A DNA stretch of 64,000 nt from a virus, in IMG/VR virus record IMGVR_UViG_3300050821_005035, positions 11,134-75,133 of that record, one strand, 5' to 3'. Positions within the stretch are counted from its first letter, which is position 1, and every line of letters starts with the position of its first letter. Position numbers and translations under genes: made by a program. Below the pieces are notes generated by a model. That model saw nothing but the letters and a program-made list of their open reading frames with translations, searched no databases and was not told where the DNA came from. Shown here one piece after another: positions 791 through 54,664 of the stretch.

Positions 791-1183
791 TCATATGCGG
801 GTTCCAAATAAGTAATCACCGAGCGGCAGCCAGACGTTCCAGTTTCCCTCTTTCAAATCCGCGTGGTGGGTCATGTGGTGACCCCTCAAGTGGAACCTAT
901 GAATCAAAAGATGGACAGCCTCCAGCATGACGAAGTAGTAGAACGTGAACACCGCCAACGGCAACCAGCCTAGGGGCGCGAAGAGCAGCGCGTTTCCGCC
1001 GATAAGCAGCGTGGCGAGCAGCGCGCCTCTCAGGTTGTGGACGAAGAGCACCGTGTGACTGGAGTCGTTGTGGTGACCGGAGTGCTGGTTCCACAGCCAG
1101 CCGTGGAGCATCCACCGGTGAATCGCGTACTCTAATAGGTTGGCGTAAACGAGGAGGCCGATGATCTCTAATACTGTTTTCAC
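791..1183 (-). CDS. fatty acid hydroxylase / sterol desaturase family protein
   Basis: His boxes EYAIHRWMLH, HSGHH, HLLIH, HHMTHH and C-terminal NWNVWLPLGDYLFGT; hydrophobic segments. Confidence 0.8.
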   Translation of the reverse strand: MKTVLEIIGLLVYANLLEYAIHRWMLHGWLWNQHSGHHNDSSHTVLFVHNLRGALLATLLIGGNALLFAPLGWLPLAVFTFYYFVMLEAVHLLIHRFHLRGHHMTHHADLKEGNWNVWLPLGDYLFGTRI

Positions 1184-1340
1184 TTGCCCCTCGCGTTCTG
1201 GTTTACAAATTCGACATCGCTTAAGTGCTTTTGCTTATCTGCCAAGTTCTGCCAGTGTCGGGCGGCTGCTTCGGCAAAATTCTGCGACACTACCGCGCGA
1301 AGGTTCATCTCCCGCCAGGTCAGGATTACTTTGTCCGGTC

Positions 1341-35801: not shown

Positions 35802-36251
35802 TTAGTCTCCCGATTCCAGTTCACGCCGACGCTTAAGTCTAGCTGAGTAGAACAAGTCTAGCATATGCGTACCGACTTCGATAGCCTTATTTTCTTTCAT
35901 CTGGTGCTGCTTCGCCAGGTGCCCGATCAGAGAGAGCGCGAATCCGGTGCGAAGAAACTGGTGACAGTCCTTGCACTCGATGACGCCGTACCCAGGCAGG
36001 TCGATATGCGCGGGCTGGGCCTTGGGTCCAAACATCCAACGGTGAACCATTGATAGCATTTTTCTACGCGCCTCTCTTGATTGCTTCTCTGATATCGTTC
36101 GGCTCCGAGCAAATCGAGCACGGTACGACCTTGCGCTCCGGGTTCAGGTCGACTACCATCCAGAAGCCAGCGCACCGTTGACAGCCCAGCTTGCCGTTGA
36201 AGTAAATCACGTTCTTGGGTTTCATGTCTCGTTTCGGTCTGCGTTCTTCGC

Positions 36252-36863
36252 TCATTTCTGTAACCTGCCCTTTGCCCATGTTTTAGCTGCATGAAGATGA
36301 CTTGCGTTCTCGCCGTTCTCTTTCAACTGCTTGTATCCCACATCTACCATTTCTACTGCCAACATTCTTAGCTGCTCAAAATCATCAACAGGCTCGCTCC
36401 TGTTCTTCCGTTTCTCTGTATGTGGCTGAGATTTTAGAAGACCAGATGAACTAATTTCGCCTCCCGCTTTGGTGACGTCTTCGACGTATTTTGCTGCTGT
36501 ATCCTCTGGTACCCGTGACAGCTTTTGCCAATACTGGGCTGTCCTTTCAGACGTATCGGTCTCTTTAAGGGCTTTAGAATAAGCACTTTCTACAGGCGCA
36601 GCCGTTGCGGGAGTAGATTTTTTCTTGGTAGGCTCTCCGCCCTTTGACTTTTCTAGCTGACCAAGTAGTTCTCCTGCCCGCCGAGCGGCTAAGAGAGCTA
36701 TCTCGGCTGCGTAATTCTGAGACTCTCGACCTAGATGAGCAGCCTTAGCATAAACTTTTGCCGCTTCTGCTACGTCCTTGATCTTGAGGACCTCAGACAA
36801 AGTTCTAGATTCTGATAAGGCTAGACGCGCTCTATCAAGTTTTGCTAGTGCGAATTCGCTCAT
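36252..36863 (-). CDS. hypothetical helical/HTH protein
   Basis: ATGA-coupled to the Mom-like gene; N-terminus resembles the helical domain often fused to phage methyltransferases. Confidence 0.5.
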   Translation of the reverse strand: MSEFALAKLDRARLALSESRTLSEVLKIKDVAEAAKVYAKAAHLGRESQNYAAEIALLAARRAGELLGQLEKSKGGEPTKKKSTPATAAPVESAYSKALKETDTSERTAQYWQKLSRVPEDTAAKYVEDVTKAGGEISSSGLLKSQPHTEKRKNRSEPVDDFEQLRMLAVEMVDVGYKQLKENGENASHLHAAKTWAKGRLQK

Positions 36864-37639
36864 GCTGCCTTCTTGGGGTAAGACCGAATGCCCCAATGTA
36901 GGATAGATTTGTCCTGGCTATCTGCAAACCAAACGTACCTGTGTTTTATGCTGCGAGAAACTCGAAATACCCTATGCTCTTTTCCAGAGCTATCTGTTAA
37001 AACGTCCTTCGAAGCCCACTCGCGTTTGTTTGTTTTCTTAGAAGGCTCCCCGCACTTGGGACAGTTTCTAAGCAGCGGGATATTCCCGTCTTCTACATAA
37101 GGTGAAACAAATCCGCCGTGCTCCCCACACTTGTAAATAAATCCGCCTCGTAGATACTGAGGAACGCTTCTGTAGTCGACAAAACCCTCGACGGCGATAT
37201 CTATGAACGGCGTAGATGACCCTGTATAAATCCAATTTGTAGCTTGATAAACATATCCGACATGTCCCTGCTTACCGTCTGCATAACTGACCAGAATTGC
37301 AGAGGGATTCTTCTTTCGGAGTTCCTTCAAACACCAGGCTATGAATCTGCTCTCGCTGTTTCTTGGCAGGCTGTCATCGAGCCATAGCCTGTTTAATTCA
37401 TAAACATCGTGTGTCCTAGCCGCTGGATTCTTCATCTGGAGTTTATTTTCTCCAACCAGTCCGCACGAGGTAGACCATGACGCGGGCTTTCCTATCGTTA
37501 AAACACCCTTTGTTTCTTCGCCAATCTTTATACCCCACGCATACGAGATTGGGCATTTTCTGTGAAGATAGTGTTTCTCTATCACTAACTCGACTGCTTC
37601 TCTCTTCTCTATTTGAACAAAATTAGGATTGGATGTCAA
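36860..37639 (-). CDS. mom: Mom-family (GNAT fold) DNA adenine modification enzyme
   Basis: HYLHR, ELNRLWL, PRNSESRFI, LVSYAD..QGHVGYVYQATNWIYTG, K.RY; Cys/His insertion. Confidence 0.8.
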   Translation of the reverse strand: MTSNPNFVQIEKREAVELVIEKHYLHRKCPISYAWGIKIGEETKGVLTIGKPASWSTSCGLVGENKLQMKNPAARTHDVYELNRLWLDDSLPRNSESRFIAWCLKELRKKNPSAILVSYADGKQGHVGYVYQATNWIYTGSSTPFIDIAVEGFVDYRSVPQYLRGGFIYKCGEHGGFVSPYVEDGNIPLLRNCPKCGEPSKKTNKREWASKDVLTDSSGKEHRVFRVSRSIKHRYVWFADSQDKSILHWGIRSYPKKAA

Positions 37640-38205
37640 ATCCCCTCCCCTGATTCTAAGACGCGAACGTGAGGTAGGACTTTCAGTGCAAATTCTTTCC
37701 TACCGATCTGGTAATAGCCAGAAAAAAGACGGATTGGATTGAAGTATATGCCTGTTTTCAAATCTATGTCGGGGATGTTAGGGTCGGGGATAAGGAGGTC
37801 ATACTTCGCGCCGTGGGTGCTTTCGGCTACAGTTTTCACGTAATCAGGCGCATTTTCCAGACCTGCGTCGGACAATTCTCTCTGTGTGGTTTCTACGCTA
37901 TCTGGAGAAGCGCTGACAGTCAAAATCCAGTTAGAAGATGCTTGAGAAAGCAGTTCGTCCATACCGTCTTTTGAAAAGTCAACAGGGGCATCAAATGTAC
38001 TCTCGTTACCCTCGTAGGGAGCATATTTACTAGCGAATATTGGCGTGGTCACAATCGAGCCAGCGATTACCCTAATTTTTGACGGCCGGATAGACAGTTG
38101 ATTTCTTTTAATCCAAAATGGGCCTTTTTCACTATAAATTTGCGCTAGAGATGATGTGAATTGAAGTATATCGACCTTTTGCAAGCCGTAATATGCTGTT
38201 AACAC
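37636..38205 (-). CDS. hypothetical protein between the tRNA-like gene and mom
   Basis: 189-aa ORF with GAGG RBS; its stop overlaps the mom start. Confidence 0.6.
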   Translation of the reverse strand: MLTAYYGLQKVDILQFTSSLAQIYSEKGPFWIKRNQLSIRPSKIRVIAGSIVTTPIFASKYAPYEGNESTFDAPVDFSKDGMDELLSQASSNWILTVSASPDSVETTQRELSDAGLENAPDYVKTVAESTHGAKYDLLIPDPNIPDIDLKTGIYFNPIRLFSGYYQIGRKEFALKVLPHVRVLESGEGI

Positions 38206-38224
38206 ATGAGCCTCTTTCTAAAAA

Positions 38225-38302
38225 TGGAGCGAAGGGGTCGGAGTTGAACCGCCGTCCGCAGGGGGTTTAAGCCTGCGTGCTCTACCCTTGAACTACCTCC
38301 GC
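38225..38302 (-). tRNA. non-canonical tRNA-Gly-like gene
   Basis: Acceptor GCGGAGG/CCTTCGC + T-CCA, D-arm GTTC/GAGC, T-loop TTCAACT; 11-nt anticodon loop and bulged T-stem. Confidence 0.8.
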
Positions 38303-38309
38303 ATTTAAG

Positions 38310-38338
38310 ACAATATCACAATCGAGCCTATTTGTCAA
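38310..38338 (-). promoter_or_regulatory. promoter of the tRNA-like/mom cassette
   Basis: TTGACA-17-TATTGT with TGTGA; predicted start falls at the tRNA 5' end. Confidence 0.7.
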
Positions 38339-38347
38339 GAGTTATTT

Positions 38348-39955
38348 TTACGCTCTCCATTTTTCTGCGTAAATTGTGGCTAACGCTCTCTTGCCGTTCG
38401 GGTATGTGAAGATGTGCGTGTGAGACCAGTTGCTAGGGCCTTGGTTGTAATTCCACCGAAGATTGGTGCTCGTTCCAGCCACGTAGAGACCGCCGTAAAT
38501 TCCGCAGCTGTGGGTGTGCGCCGTGTTGGCCTTGCGTGCCATCGTTGCCAAGTTCAATGGGCTGCCCCACCGTCCCGCAGGACCTAGATGGCCGTGTTGC
38601 CCGTTCTCGATCTTCTTCCCGCACGTCAGGTAAGACTCGTCGGAGAGTAGAAACTTTGTCCGAGCATTATATCCTGCGTTCTTTAAGAACCATTCGAGCA
38701 TGTTCACATCTCGGACCATCTTGCCCTTTCGCAATTCCGAGTACATGTACGCCTGCGCTTTCAAGAACAATTCGGAGTTGGCCGGGTCTTTTCTGTAGTC
38801 GTATTTTTGCAGCCAGGACTTCAGCCACGGGTCGTCGTGATTCGAGTAAACGATCACGGTCTTGGCGAAGTCGTAGTTAAACCAGTTAAGAACTCCTACA
38901 GTCTTTTCCAGTTCTGCGTCGAGTCGGGTAAGACCACGCATCCAGGTCATAAAGCGCGCGTGAGGATTGTCGGATTCGTGGTGGTTTACGGACGCACCCT
39001 CCATTACGTCGTGGAGGAAGATGTGCTTAGGTTTCAGTGTTGCGATGATATTTCGAGAAATAGACATAACGTCTGGGTCTATTTGAGTTGCGTGAATGTC
39101 GCCCAGGGTGATTGATTCAATACGATTGCCTGTGGTGACCTTGCCGTTCTTCGAGACGACGTCGAGGTCTTGTATAGTGCCACTCTCGTCTTCGTTTAGT
39201 TGCCGGACCCACCAGTTGCCGTCGGAGTTAACCTCGACGAGAAGGCCGCCGTAGATGTGGTGAAACTCCGCGATCATGCCTTCTCGCTTCTGGATGTAGT
39301 TGCGTTGGGTGATGGTGCCCGTGGTGTAGTTCATCTTGACGCCTTCGCCCTGCATCGTAGCGATGGAGCGCATCGCTAGCTTGGCGTGGGGGAAGATTGC
39401 GCTGTTGCGACCTGTGTAAGATTCCAGGGACGCCAGCGGCTGCACTGCGGTCGGGAGGATGTTCATCTCTCCGCACCACACCAGGCCGGGGGCGAGTTGA
39501 ATGCGGCGGTCTTGGATGTGATCGGTAATTTTTGGGTCGTACCAGAGTTCTTTCTCTTCCATCTTGTCGGTGCCGCGCTTAACGCTCAGCTTGCCGAATC
39601 GGTTCTGGTTGTACGTGTAAGTGCCGACGATGATCTCCGCGTTGTAATGCTTCGCGAGAGCGTTCAAGTTCCTCCACGCTGACTCGTGAACGTACGTGTT
39701 GTTCTGTGCTGACGTCAGGACGTATCGACGAACCTCGCCCTTCACCGGCAGCTTCTGCTTCTCTGCCTTGGTGCCGTCGATGGTGCCGGACGCGAGAGGC
39801 TTCTTCATCAGGCCGAGCGGTGTTATGATGCGGCGCACGGTGTGGCGGCTGATGCCTAACTCTTTCGATGTGGCGCGGACGTTGCCGCCGTTTCTCTCGA
39901 AGGATGCTGCGACTACATCTTGGGGCGTGCGATCTCTTTTCTTAACTGCGCTCAT
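38348..39955 (-). CDS. calcineurin-like metallophosphoesterase with N-terminal HTH
   Basis: GDIH, HD, SNHD, HGH, AHTHS; N-terminal ATSKELGISRHTV. Confidence 0.75.
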   Translation of the reverse strand: MSAVKKRDRTPQDVVAASFERNGGNVRATSKELGISRHTVRRIITPLGLMKKPLASGTIDGTKAEKQKLPVKGEVRRYVLTSAQNNTYVHESAWRNLNALAKHYNAEIIVGTYTYNQNRFGKLSVKRGTDKMEEKELWYDPKITDHIQDRRIQLAPGLVWCGEMNILPTAVQPLASLESYTGRNSAIFPHAKLAMRSIATMQGEGVKMNYTTGTITQRNYIQKREGMIAEFHHIYGGLLVEVNSDGNWWVRQLNEDESGTIQDLDVVSKNGKVTTGNRIESITLGDIHATQIDPDVMSISRNIIATLKPKHIFLHDVMEGASVNHHESDNPHARFMTWMRGLTRLDAELEKTVGVLNWFNYDFAKTVIVYSNHDDPWLKSWLQKYDYRKDPANSELFLKAQAYMYSELRKGKMVRDVNMLEWFLKNAGYNARTKFLLSDESYLTCGKKIENGQHGHLGPAGRWGSPLNLATMARKANTAHTHSCGIYGGLYVAGTSTNLRWNYNQGPSNWSHTHIFTYPNGKRALATIYAEKWRA

Positions 39956-54348: not shown

Positions 54349-54434
54349 TGGCCTGTGGCTCAACCCGGTACAGCATCTGGCCGTTAACCAGACAGTCCGA
54401 AAGGACATTGGAGGTTCGAATCCTCCTGGGCCAG
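54349..54434 (+). tRNA. tRNA with GTT (Asn) anticodon and long variable arm
   Basis: TGGCCTG/TGGGCCA acceptor, TCTGG-CCGTTAA-CCAGA, GGAGG-TTCGAAT-CCTCC; no encoded CCA. Confidence 0.8.
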
Positions 54435-54664
54435 CGGTGTGCAGAACAACTTTAGAAGTACGACGTTGTACAACAGAGAGAACAAAAATCCCAGGGTAGC
54501 TCCCGTGGGCCTGTATCCTCGCTAGGATAAGTTCTCTCGCTCATCACAAATGAGCCAAGCGCCGCCCGGGGCGCGCTGATAAAATCCGGGAAGCTTTGAT
54601 TGTCCCTAAAGGCGGACGCTAAACAAGATAGTGGACACCTTTGGGGACATTACAACAATTTCTG

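Follow-up and report, generated by a model that had tools for sequence, protein, structure and literature searches.

A tRNA-Gly-like RNA gene linked to mom in a clade of phages: a putative non-decoding glycyl carrier for DNA modification

Phage Mu's Mom enzyme transfers glycine from Gly-tRNA-Gly onto the N6 of adenine in duplex DNA, a result that the preliminary description of the locus studied here had put forward for checking and that is indeed published (Silva et al. 2026, PMC13219725). The enzyme accepts all three E. coli tRNA-Gly isoacceptors, rejects Gly-tRNA-Ala, and draws on the ordinary tRNA-Gly of the host, which the authors frame as the scavenging of a readily available resource (PMC13219725). 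The closest functional analogy to the RNA described below is offered by the non-proteogenic NP1-NP3 tRNA-Gly of S. aureus, which feed FmhB, FemA, and FemB (Rietmeyer et al. 2020, PMC7826273). These dedicated tRNAs receive their glycine from the normal GlyRS and are poor substrates for EF-Tu and the ribosome; transferases related to the GNAT fold that use Gly-tRNA outside translation prefer them, and their D and T arms have distinctive features (PMC7826273). The staphylococcal NP tRNAs belong to cells, combine a normal 7-nt UCC loop with a regular T stem, and supply peptidoglycan synthesis, whereas the mom-linked RNAs occur in viruses, their loops measure 3-11 nt, their T stem is bulged, they are physically fused to the gene of the enzyme, and they are proposed to serve DNA modification.

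The window, by which we mean the whole 64,000-nt stretch of viral DNA analysed here, carries a mom gene in a cassette headed by a gene for such an RNA, an arrangement that also recalls systems in which a tRNA or its mimic is joined to a messenger. tmRNA and the tRNA-like structures at the 3' end of plant viral RNAs contain a CCA-ending mimic of the acceptor and T arm, which is charged by a synthetase; their amino acid is Ala, Val, His, or Tyr, their roles lie in rescuing ribosomes or in the replication and translation of viruses, and they do not serve as transferase donors. As proposed below, the mom-linked RNA would share with them a non-decoding, chargeable, CCA-ended design on a messenger molecule but, unlike them, it lies at the 5' end of, or within, the messenger of the enzyme that presumably uses it. 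In the E. coli thrU-tyrU-glyT-thrT-tufB operon, a promoter, tRNAs, and a protein gene are co-transcribed, and the tRNAs are freed endonucleolytically. The cassette in the window shares this order of promoter, tRNA, and protein gene; the tRNAs of the operon, however, are canonical and do not overlap the downstream coding frame, unlike the mom-linked RNA.

Table 1. Features of the mom cassette in the window
Feature	Coordinates	Strand	Basis
Promoter-like site, sigma-70-type	38310..38338	minus	TTGACA, 17 nt, TATTGT, TG before -10; 10/12 matches
tRNA-Gly-like RNA gene, putatively non-decoding, 78 nt	38225..38302	minus	ARAGORN, Rfam, minimum-energy cloverleaf, family model R1
ORF189, 189 aa	37636..38205	minus	no Pfam/PHROG family; homologues found
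mom, 259 aa, TTG start	36860..37639	minus	Pfam Mom PF25680, phrog_1384, Mu Mom structure 8bv8

The preliminary description had placed a single promoter ahead of the tRNA-like gene, an ORF, and mom in a visibly AT-richer cassette. All these elements were recovered (Table 1), and the G+C content is 0.46-0.50 over 36001-39000, against 0.53-0.57 in the flanks. The end of the promoter -10 hexamer and the first base of the tRNA-like gene are 7 nt apart. Promoters with at least 10/12 matches, placed 4-7 nt before the RNA, were found in 5 of 36 distinct loci (the window, L119, L105, L101, and L089), compared with 0.2% of 5000 control positions. No terminator-like site was found on the minus strand from the promoter to the end of mom. 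The stop codon of ORF189 and the start of mom overlap in a shared TTGA, with a GGAGG a few bases upstream of the TTG start. The window also contains a cluster of canonical tRNA genes at 54.3-55.7 kb; the tRNA-like gene is separate from it and tied to mom.

ORF189 has 12 homologues at 51-67% identity, and in L082 a homologue lies upstream of the tRNA-like gene and mom. Its C-terminal ~130 residues fall within a conserved family whose members have ~195 aa, and its N-terminal ~55 residues are unlike that family. The AlphaFold model is confident over residues 60-189; in fold searches with it, Foldseek returned nothing at E <= 0.001 and the best Z of VIA-align was 3.8. Protein-pattern scans of viral contigs with ORF189 and with the upstream "DNA transfer protein" found no relatives.

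The window Mom matched Pfam PF25680 with E 3.4e-39 and 135.1 bits (cut-off 27.1), phrog_1384 with E 2.4e-39, and the Mu Mom structure 8bv8 with E 3.7e-13. It belongs to the same enzyme family as Mu Mom and is a long form, a Mom-family GNAT whose C-terminal half carries a Cys-rich insertion at the place of the helix-turn-helix-like insertion of Mu Mom. Residues R84 (ELNRLW) and S97 (NSES), invariant across 24 Mom homologues, are the probable equivalents of the essential R111 and S124 of Mu, the offset in numbering being taken from the Ser-to-Ala change of the crystallised S124A chain in the 8bv8 alignment. On this likeness, the expected donor would have a tRNA-Gly-type acceptor end with U73-CCA, and the expected product would be 6-NcmdA, with an anti-restriction role. 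The difference lies in the supply: Mu uses the host tRNA-Gly pool, whereas the window and 43 related loci have their own, putatively non-decoding tRNA-Gly-like gene.

The Rfam tRNA model RF00005 scored the window RNA at 24.0 bits (E 0.016), not reaching the gathering threshold of 29 bits; the three other tRNAs of the window reach 47-59 bits. ARAGORN labels it tRNA-Leu(taa) by forcing a 7-nt loop, and the family model R1, described below, scores it at 81.5 bits. The minimum-energy fold is the cloverleaf that had been drawn earlier, and it agrees with most of the anatomy given then. The 7-bp acceptor stem includes G1-C72, C2-G71, G3-C70, and G4-U69, and the 3' end consists of U73 and an encoded CCA followed by a U run; the first three pairs, U73, and CCA had been listed as retained. 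The D stem has 4 bp and the variable region has the 3 nt first counted. The anticodon arm has 5 bp and the expected 11-nt loop or, alternatively, 6 bp and 9 nt. The T stem, GGCGG/CCG-A-CC, had been described as carrying either a bulge or a mismatch at 50-64: it carries a bulge, an A between pairs 51-63 and 50-64, and no mismatch. The anticodon loop terminates in ACCCC and, counting from the 3' side, has C instead of a purine at position 37. Since there are four C in a row, and C and not A at 37, the choice of the two bases of the window loop that serve as C35/C36 is an assumption.

The fold energy of the window RNA does not differ significantly from that of shuffled sequences (z = -0.97); that the RNA is more than a chance structure follows from its repeated occurrence next to mom, with compensatory changes, in dozens of loci. 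A second soil contig shares the 11-nt loop, and 4 of its 5 stem pairs are changed on both sides, with full compensation. Matches to the tRNA-like gene were found in three soil DNA sequencing runs stored as contigs, one of which may be the origin of the window, with no RNA run among them. When 50,697 phage records were searched with the cassette at nucleotide level, nothing matched, and the RNA alone returned just short chance matches to ordinary tRNAs. The sole exact match to the anticodon arm in viral contigs (L081) was rejected as a chance match, lying within unrelated sequence and forming no tRNA.

A relaxed covariance search around Mom homologues had been suggested as a check. We built the covariance model R1 on the window RNA and scanned it over related Mom loci (~443 kb), and found the RNA just upstream of mom, on the same strand, in 43 of 93 loci. 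These loci come from soil and peat metagenomes and Acidobacteriota prophages, and in 25 of the 43 the CCA end stands 1 nt before Mom's conserved Phe codon. The RNA lies 227 nt upstream of mom in L172, and 570 nt and one gene upstream in the window; L099 and L100 contain second copies. The remaining R1 matches in the scanned sequence were weak or fell on ordinary tRNAs. The closest Mom homologues, P0002 (75%) and P0003 (72%), probably have the tRNA-like RNA as well, since their called N-terminal extensions resemble a translated T arm and acceptor end.

Random decay of the tRNA with no linkage to mom had been named as the pattern that would speak against a functional association, and it is not the pattern found. 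The RNA is carried by 35 of the 56 distinct Moms and, on the Mom tree, this trait requires 5 changes, against a mean of 17.2 with shuffled labels (0/500 shuffles as low). The Moms that lack it are a whole clade of short forms and several long ones. In L083 and L116, closest relatives, we found a decayed remnant only, so the RNA appears dispensable in some lineages; the D arm is gone in L087, L089, L094, and L127. Furthermore, the family model found no such RNA in 80 more distant viral Mom loci, which contain only one canonical tRNA-Gly(tcc), 2 kb off and on the other strand, and one tRNA-Met. The linkage is thus specific to the clade of the window, as far as model R1 sees.

The test was also run in reverse, with a cut-off of E <= 1e-10, on 151 genomes of the same class: the sole tRNA-like match was the known mom-linked one, and the other seven were canonical tRNA-Gly (one of these, in genome G080, was used for the count only). 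This result bears on the idea that the RNA is a decoy or spare tRNA-Gly against host attackers, such as TacT-type GNAT toxins or anticodon nucleases, and is unrelated to the chemistry of Mom. Phage tRNAs with altered anticodon loops that escape host nucleases do exist. It also fits this idea that Gly-tRNA-Gly is the target of GNAT toxins (discussed in PMC13219725). Nonetheless, we hold it to be very unlikely: free-standing copies are absent from the 150 other genomes of the class, a spare tRNA for translation must decode, which the family RNAs probably cannot do, and it would be left unexplained why the site, one base ahead of mom, is fixed across dozens of loci.

Conservation was counted over 37 distinct RNA copies, and pairs and tertiary nucleotides over 27. 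GCG at positions 1-3 and U73 are each present in 35/37 copies, CCA in 36/37, and a CC in the hairpin loop in 37/37 (36 by automatic fold, and L094 after re-segmenting). Pairs 1-3 are invariant in 26/27, while covariation is seen at acceptor pairs 4-7 and in the D and T stems; purine 4 stands opposite pyrimidine 69 in 26/27. The tertiary nucleotides U8, G10, A14, T54, T55, C56, and A58 are retained in 23-27 of 27. Both sides change in 16 of 21 pairs, with 0/500 shuffles reaching any measure and slid controls far lower, and 90% of cells are paired across Moms that are more than 1 substitution per site apart.

A decaying tRNA-Gly pseudogene or an integration-site remnant, left beside mom by descent alone, could also account for an Rfam score under the cut-off, for the remnants in two loci, and for the loss of the D arm in four others; tRNA genes often serve as phage attachment sites. 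We disfavour this explanation and judge it extremely improbable, because the compensatory changes persist across divergent Moms, the identity and tertiary nucleotides are invariant, strong promoters stand exactly at the 5' end, and no long exact matches were found between the prophage tRNA-like genes and the host tRNA-Gly genes of the same genomes.

The anticodon loop varies between 3 and 11 nt; most often it measures 5 or 6 nt, and just 6/37 copies have 7 nt. Exactly two bases follow the CC in 30/37 copies and 0-7 precede it, which bears out the earlier choice of numbering the loop from its 3' side. The 7-nt members have ACC with a pyrimidine at 37 or are without U33, and in 8/37 copies the loop has 8 nt and follows the pattern UUAACCAN or CUAUCCAG, in which ARAGORN reads 4-base anticodons. 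The T-stem bulge is general in the family and absent from the true tRNAs of the same loci and from host tRNA-Gly.

These 8-nt loops, like the enlarged loop of the window, would suit a decoding tRNA with an unusual reading, one that suppresses frameshifts or reads four-base codons (sufD type), as enlarged anticodon loops can read quadruplets. With loops of 3-11 nt among close relatives, however, no single decoding rule fits, and the 7-nt members are themselves abnormal. Moreover, EF-Tu contacts tRNA in the T-stem region that is bulged here, and the gene is linked to mom and not to the canonical tRNA cluster. A decoding role of this kind therefore seems to us highly improbable.

The RNA abuts mom in 23 distinct loci, and in all of them the reading frame of mom stays open across the entire RNA. 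In the consensus 5' half TAG interrupts two frames out of three, and every length variant uses an open frame. The abutting loci have GGAGG at RNA positions 3-7, in the acceptor strand; in 10 of them an in-frame ATG or GTG follows at RNA position 15, in the D loop, 7 nt after the GGAGG, and the others have an ATG 1-16 nt ahead of the RNA. Gene callers carry P0002, P0003, P0013, P0024, and P0025 through the RNA. Separate SD-ATG starts of mom after the RNA are present in L086, L087, L089, L095, L096, L109, and L127, and in 3 of these 7 loci there are stops within the RNA.

Because the mom frame runs through the RNA in many relatives, a cis-acting tRNA mimic has to be considered: a structured leader of mom, or its first 25 codons, that controls mom translation or mRNA fate and is never a free charged RNA. 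Such an element might mask the SD and start, bind Mom or GlyRS for feedback in the manner of the thrS operator, or recruit RNase P or RNase E. The open frame, the in-frame starts, the gene-caller extensions, and the stops that appear where mom has its own downstream ATG all speak for it, as does the translational control of Mu mom via RNA structure (Com); the thrS operator itself mimics tRNA-Thr. On the other hand, a leader needs no U73, exact CCA, pairs 1-3, R4-Y69, CC two bases from the 3' end of the loop, or tertiary nucleotides, and the RNA persists where the start of mom is out of reach (the window, L172, the second copies of L099 and L100, and the seven SD-ATG loci). In the window, indeed, the RNA lies outside any reading frame, with ORF189 between it and mom, is intact, and has its own strong promoter, which indicates that its retention serves neither coding nor the masking of the mom start. 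As a full account of the RNA, a cis-acting mimic thus appears rather unlikely. It is compatible with a glycyl carrier, and the two are not exclusive: the open mom frame, the GGAGG, and the in-frame start in the RNA point to a role in cis as well.

The reading that we prefer, and consider moderately probable, is that the tRNA-like RNA is a non-decoding glycyl carrier for Mom, the two forming a two-component module for DNA hypermodification. What suggests a private glycine carrier is the presence of the same odd RNA directly before mom in dozens of related phages. The carrier would be a derivative of a host-type tRNA-Gly(CCC) that travels with Mom. We infer that the promoter would fire at the first nucleotide of the RNA, or within a base or two, and that the 3' end would be released at the encoded CCA, ahead of the U run. 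The host alpha2beta2 GlyRS would then charge the RNA with glycine. The identity set of this enzyme comprises G1-C72, C2-G71, U73, C35, C36, and purine 4 with pyrimidine 69, and its beta subunit also contacts the T stem (PMC10464925). The constant features of the family match this set, with the loop CC in the presumed place of C35 and C36, as the preliminary description had argued for the window RNA, and the decoding parts vary freely. Charging thus appears possible, given that G1-C72, C2-G71, G3-C70, R4-Y69, U73, the tertiary nucleotides of the L-shape, and, putatively, a 3'-stacked C35-C36 are all kept; the 9-11-nt loop and the 3-nt variable region might themselves impede GlyRS. Owing to the wrong-length 5' side of the anticodon loop and the bulged T stem, the charged RNA would be useless to the ribosome and probably a poor ligand of EF-Tu. 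Being unusable in translation, its glycine would be reserved for Mom, neither drawn from translation nor competed for by it. Weighing against a dedicated carrier are the good activity of Mu Mom with ordinary host tRNA-Gly, the absence of the RNA from the short-Mom clade, several long Moms, and the 80 distant loci, and the decay seen in L083 and L116.

The nature of the hosts is coherent with this glycyl-carrier proposal. Among cellular tRNAs, tRNA-Gly(CCC) of Acidobacteriota comes closest to the family model, with UCC and GCC also among the best matches, and GlyQ (PF02091, of the alpha2beta2 GlyRS type) is encoded in 4 of 5 Acidobacteriota MAGs that are likely hosts. Descent from the staphylococcal NP lineage was discarded in view of these relatives and of the abnormal loop, and the likeness is functional only. 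Separately, a host tRNA-Gly(UCC) whose T stem is bulged (L177) was considered as a mom-linked candidate and rejected, with no mom within 1.5 kb.

More tentatively, the RNA of the abutting loci may double as the translation start region and first 20-30 codons of mom. Each transcript would then either fold and be excised as a glycyl carrier, with loss of the mom start, or remain unfolded and be translated into Mom, giving a self-balancing tRNA/mRNA unit and the first virus-encoded non-decoding aminoacyl carrier for DNA modification. We regard this extension as possible but doubtful.

Mom's use of Gly-tRNA-Gly is already published (PMC13219725); what is new is the mom-linked RNA family, and our literature search found no paper describing a mom-linked non-decoding tRNA-Gly-like RNA. 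If the glycyl-carrier reading is true, some phages supply their own activated-amino-acid carrier for DNA hypermodification, and viruses have reinvented the split between proteogenic and non-proteogenic tRNAs known from staphylococcal cell-wall synthesis. Aberrant tRNA genes rejected by annotation tools could then act as functional cofactors. The 37 natural variants would map the needs of GlyRS and Mom against those of the ribosome and EF-Tu on a tRNA, and the compact two-part cassette could install 6-NcmdA without draining translation. Furthermore, a tRNA fold that overlaps a reading frame and a ribosome-binding site would be a rare case of dual coding, and one that is directly testable.

The promoter, tRNA-like gene, ORF and mom, which the preliminary description had read as one unit, are all present on the minus strand of the window (see the table), and no terminator-like sites were found on that strand within the unit. 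The window is part of a viral contig of 75 kb that comes from soil metagenome data. The cassette has a higher A+T content than the flanking DNA, as had also been claimed. The -10 hexamer of the promoter lies 7 nt from the first base of the tRNA-like gene, and transcription from this promoter would begin at or next to G1. Directly 3' of the encoded CCA come TTTT and TAG, followed by a ribosome-binding site and ORF189, whose stop codon shares bases with the TTG that starts mom. Judged by its sequence matches, the mom product clearly belongs to the Mom family of DNA-modifying enzymes. The three canonical tRNAs of the window are all away from the cassette, at 54.3-55.7 kb; among them, the tRNA-Asn(gtt), unusually long for its isotype, is clustered with tRNA-Ala(tgc) and tRNA-Thr(tgt).

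Positions of the features discussed, in the window or in the fetched loci (L-numbers)
Feature	Position	Strand	Basis or remark
Promoter-like site	38338..38310	minus	TTGACA, 17 nt, TATTGT with TG extension; 10/12 matches
tRNA-like gene, 78 nt	38302..38225	minus	ARAGORN call, Rfam score, cloverleaf MFE fold
ORF189, without family assignment	38205..37636	minus	Pfam and PHROG searches
Promoter-like site inside ORF189	38160..38131
mom, TTG start	37639..36860	minus	PF25680, 135 bits; phrog_1384; Mu Mom 8bv8, E 3.7e-13
Stretch before and across the mom start	37615..37650	minus
Cys-rich insertion of long-form Mom	37050..37130		alignments A1 and A7
phrog_33995-related gene	36252..36896	minus	3' of mom
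tRNA-Asn(gtt)	54349..54435	plus	87 nt; Rfam 47 bits
ORF189 homologue	L082:1184-1582		upstream of tRNA-like gene and mom
phrog_33995-related gene	L099:949-1148; L114:600-1061		upstream of mom in L132, L140, L150 and others
Tandem tRNA-Gly-like genes	L099:878-949 and 1148-1220; L100:843-914 and 1125-1197		upstream of mom
tRNA-like gene, discriminator A (ACCA)	L114:1061-1133		about 440 nt downstream of mom
Chromosomal tRNA-Gly(UCC)	L177:1501-1577		G002, contig C8; Acidobacteriota MAG

The minimum-energy fold of the window RNA is a cloverleaf. ARAGORN labels it tRNA-Leu(taa), through a forced 7-nt loop, and the Rfam tRNA model gives it 24 bits, below the cut-off of 29. The acceptor stem contains G1-C72, C2-G71, G3-C70 and G4-U69. 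A D stem of normal form bears a loop that contains GG; the anticodon arm pairs over 5 bp around an 11-nt loop or, alternatively, over 6 bp around a 9-nt loop; the variable region has 3 nt, and the 3' end is U73 followed by the encoded CCA. The acceptor pairs, U73, CCA, 11-nt loop and 3-nt variable region of the preliminary description were thus all found, and the T-stem irregularity that it had left as a bulge or a mismatch is a bulge, with the stem reading GGCGG/CCG-A-CC and the A bulged. The anticodon loop, apart from its first base, recurs on a 260-nt contig of another soil sample, where both partners are changed in four of the five stem pairs; by this comparison, this peculiar loop of the window is itself conserved.

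The decisive result for the mom-linked RNA is comparative, and comes from sequence. In distant Mom loci on viral contigs (at most 48% identity) no such RNA was found. Closer Mom homologues were obtained by protein search and their loci taken from metagenome and genome collections; there, ARAGORN called a string of "tRNA-???" genes whose "anticodons" have two or four bases; every one is on the mom strand, with its 3' end at the mom start. A family covariance model, R1, was built from nine of these genes with the bulged T stem encoded in its structure. The proposed search of Mom neighbourhoods with a relaxed model bore out the linkage: R1 matches an RNA in 43 of the 93 related Mom loci, at 16 to 86 bits (81.5 bits for the window copy), the lowest scores, 16.4 and 16.6 bits, belonging to copies clipped by a contig end. 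Without exception the RNA lies on the same strand as mom and immediately upstream of it. In 25 loci, CCA finishes exactly one base before a conserved Phe codon (residue 7 of the window Mom); the other gaps are 7-37 nt, and 227 nt in L172. Conversely, when the family model was run over 151 genomes of the host class (E <= 1e-10), the only tRNA-like match was the known mom-linked copy; the other seven matches, one of them from the unpublished genome G080, were canonical tRNA-Gly (six CCC, one UCC).

On the Mom tree, the RNA is present with 35 of the 56 distinct Moms, and the trait requires 5 changes, compared with 17.2 for shuffled labels. Moms without the RNA fall mostly in a single short-Mom clade, the rest being scattered losses. 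The tRNA-like linkage occurs with the long and medium Mom forms only: long forms have a Cys-rich, zinc-ribbon-like insertion with conserved C171, C193 and C196, medium forms are without the ribbon, and short forms without the entire insert. Two loci, L099 and L100, hold two RNA copies each, which differ from one another; the distal copy is of a shortened-T-arm subtype, common to L172, L086 and L096, that retains the bulged base, GCG, U73 and CCA. In L114 the tRNA-like gene lies beyond a phrog_33995-like gene, and the remaining 133 nt of the contig contain no recognisable mom start.

The ORF189 family is conserved (about 195 residues, 12 homologues), and structure comparison found no recognisable fold; the N-terminal 55 residues of the window ORF189 are not homologous to the family, and the ORF contains an internal promoter-like site. 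One of the homologues, P0129, comes from a contig whose length, 51,317, equals that of the contig carrying P0002, the closest Mom homologue. A phrog_33995-related gene, with a C-terminal motif like HLxAAKxWA, lies upstream of the tRNA-like gene and mom, or of mom alone, in many loci. Since this gene precedes mom there and follows it in the window, the cassette is, to judge from gene order, rearranged around a constant neighbour.

Conservation was counted over 37 distinct copies, and pairs and tertiary positions over an alignment of 27 sequences. GCG at positions 1-3 is kept in 35/37 copies, the discriminator U in 35/37 and the encoded CCA in 36/37. Sixteen of the 21 pairs are changed on both sides, and the observed values were reached by none of 500 shuffles and by no slid control. 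Pairs 1-72, 2-71 and 3-70 are the same in 26/27 sequences, pairs 4-7 vary freely, and purine 4/pyrimidine 69 is found in 26/27; the tertiary nucleotides U8, G10, A14, T54, T55, C56 and A58 are retained in 23-27 of 27. The extra base on the 3' strand of the T stem, mostly a purine, is family-wide and occurs neither in the true tRNAs of the same loci nor in host tRNA-Gly. The stem of the anticodon-arm hairpin covaries completely. Its loop, in the 5-bp stem reading, ranges from 3 to 11 nt, with 7 nt in only 6/37 copies, and all 37 have CC in it (36 by automatic fold, L094 after its arm was re-segmented). As exactly two bases follow this CC in 30/37 copies but 0 to 7 precede it, the alignment indicates that the register is kept on the 3'-stacked side of the loop (C35, C36, 37, 38) and is not kept in the U-turn half, which is required for decoding.

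In five Acidobacteriota genomes holding such prophages, the strongest cellular hits of the family model were tRNA-Gly CCC (55-56 bits), UCC and GCC, with tRNA-Lys(CUU) near-best at 53 bits. The family D arm is that of Acidobacteriota tRNA-Gly(CCC), and the host tRNA-Gly genes share with the family the GCGGG start, U73 and encoded CCA; their T stems are regular. A gene for GlyQ (alpha subunit of alpha2beta2 GlyRS) is present in four of the five genomes. The chromosomal tRNA-Gly(UCC) of L177 scores 63 bits, above tRNA-Gly CCC; it has a normal 7-nt anticodon loop, a bulged T stem of the family kind and an odd D arm, its neighbours encode a Kelch-repeat protein and a SpoIIE/HAMP phosphatase, and no mom was found within 1.5 kb.

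According to Silva et al. (Nat Commun 2026, PMC13219725), Gly-tRNA-Gly is the donor from which Mu Mom places glycine on N6 of adenine in double-stranded DNA, so that the donor named in the preliminary description is a published one. All three E. coli isoacceptors were active and Gly-tRNA-Ala inactive; it is the acceptor end that the authors suspect to be recognised. The host pool is taken as the source of glycine, with a possible translation cost noted, and phage tRNA is not mentioned (PMC13219725). The residues essential in Mu Mom, R111 and S124 (PMC13219725), have their counterparts in R84 and S97 of the window Mom, invariant in 24 homologues; the numbering offset was inferred from the Ser-to-Ala change in the crystallised Mu Mom chain (8bv8). 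For bacterial alpha2beta2 GlyRS, the identity set comprises G1-C72, C2-G71, C35, C36 and U73, and the enzyme further requires purine 4/pyrimidine 69 and the entire L shape (PMC10464925).

A rival, or additional, role for the RNA is that of a cis-acting tRNA mimic, whose folding hides the mom start and which Mom or GlyRS might bind. In the abutting loci the mom frame is open across the entire RNA in 23 of 23 distinct cases; TAG interrupts two of the three frames in the consensus 5' half, and every length variant occupies an open frame. Start signals lie inside the RNA in 10 loci (GGAGG at positions 3-7, 7 nt upstream of an in-frame D-loop ATG or GTG), an alternative start being an ATG 1-16 nt 5' of the RNA, and gene callers lengthen Mom at its N-terminus by a DGGS-P-PSLHF-type stretch, in which T arm and acceptor end are read as protein. 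Within one large subclade, then, the RNA apparently also provides the start region and opening codons of mom. Of the 7 loci in which a separate SD and ATG of mom follow the RNA, 3 have stops within the RNA. Against this role, U73, the exact CCA, the GlyRS acceptor set, the in-register CC and the tertiary nucleotides are all needless for a leader, and the RNA persists at positions from which it could not cover the start of mom. This is plainest in the window: ORF189 stands between the RNA and mom, mom has a GGAGG and TTG of its own, the frame across the RNA reads DGGSTPTPSLHF and then stops, and the copy still keeps its high R1 score together with the best kind of promoter. Promoters placed right at the RNA 5' end likewise occur in L119, L105, L101 and L089 (5/36 loci including the window, versus 0.2% of control positions). 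For these reasons we rank a carrier acting in trans above the cis mimic, which we consider unlikely.

At the L082 junction the order is ORF189 homologue, RNA, mom, and the RNA is lost from the homologous junction of the window. There, the first mom codons (T-S-N-P-N-F) and the preceding bases bear a faint likeness to a T arm and acceptor end in translation; given the complete tRNA-like gene in L082, this stretch seems to be what is left of an RNA copy that was moved or deleted.

Overall, we regard it as probable that the RNA is a phage-encoded, putatively GlyRS-chargeable, non-decoding glycyl carrier for Mom. Such a carrier, already proposed in the preliminary description, is supported by every available computational test, the conserved features being the GlyRS identity set and the decoding half of the loop being free. 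Counting against it, Mu Mom does without a tRNA of its own, the short-Mom clade and several long Moms are without the RNA, and the closest relatives, L083 and L116, retain no more than a degraded remnant within a coding extension; moreover, the enlarged or shrunken loops, short variable region and bulge might hamper GlyRS as well as EF-Tu. Searches of full texts outside subscription journals turned up the Mom paper in two versions and no account of a Mom-linked tRNA. The nearest known functional analogue is the non-proteogenic tRNA-Gly of S. aureus, which feed FmhB, FemA and FemB and evade EF-Tu (PMC7826273); membership of that lineage is excluded, the likeness being in function only. On this reading, host GlyRS would charge the RNA with glycine, and the glycylated RNA would serve Mom, not decoding.
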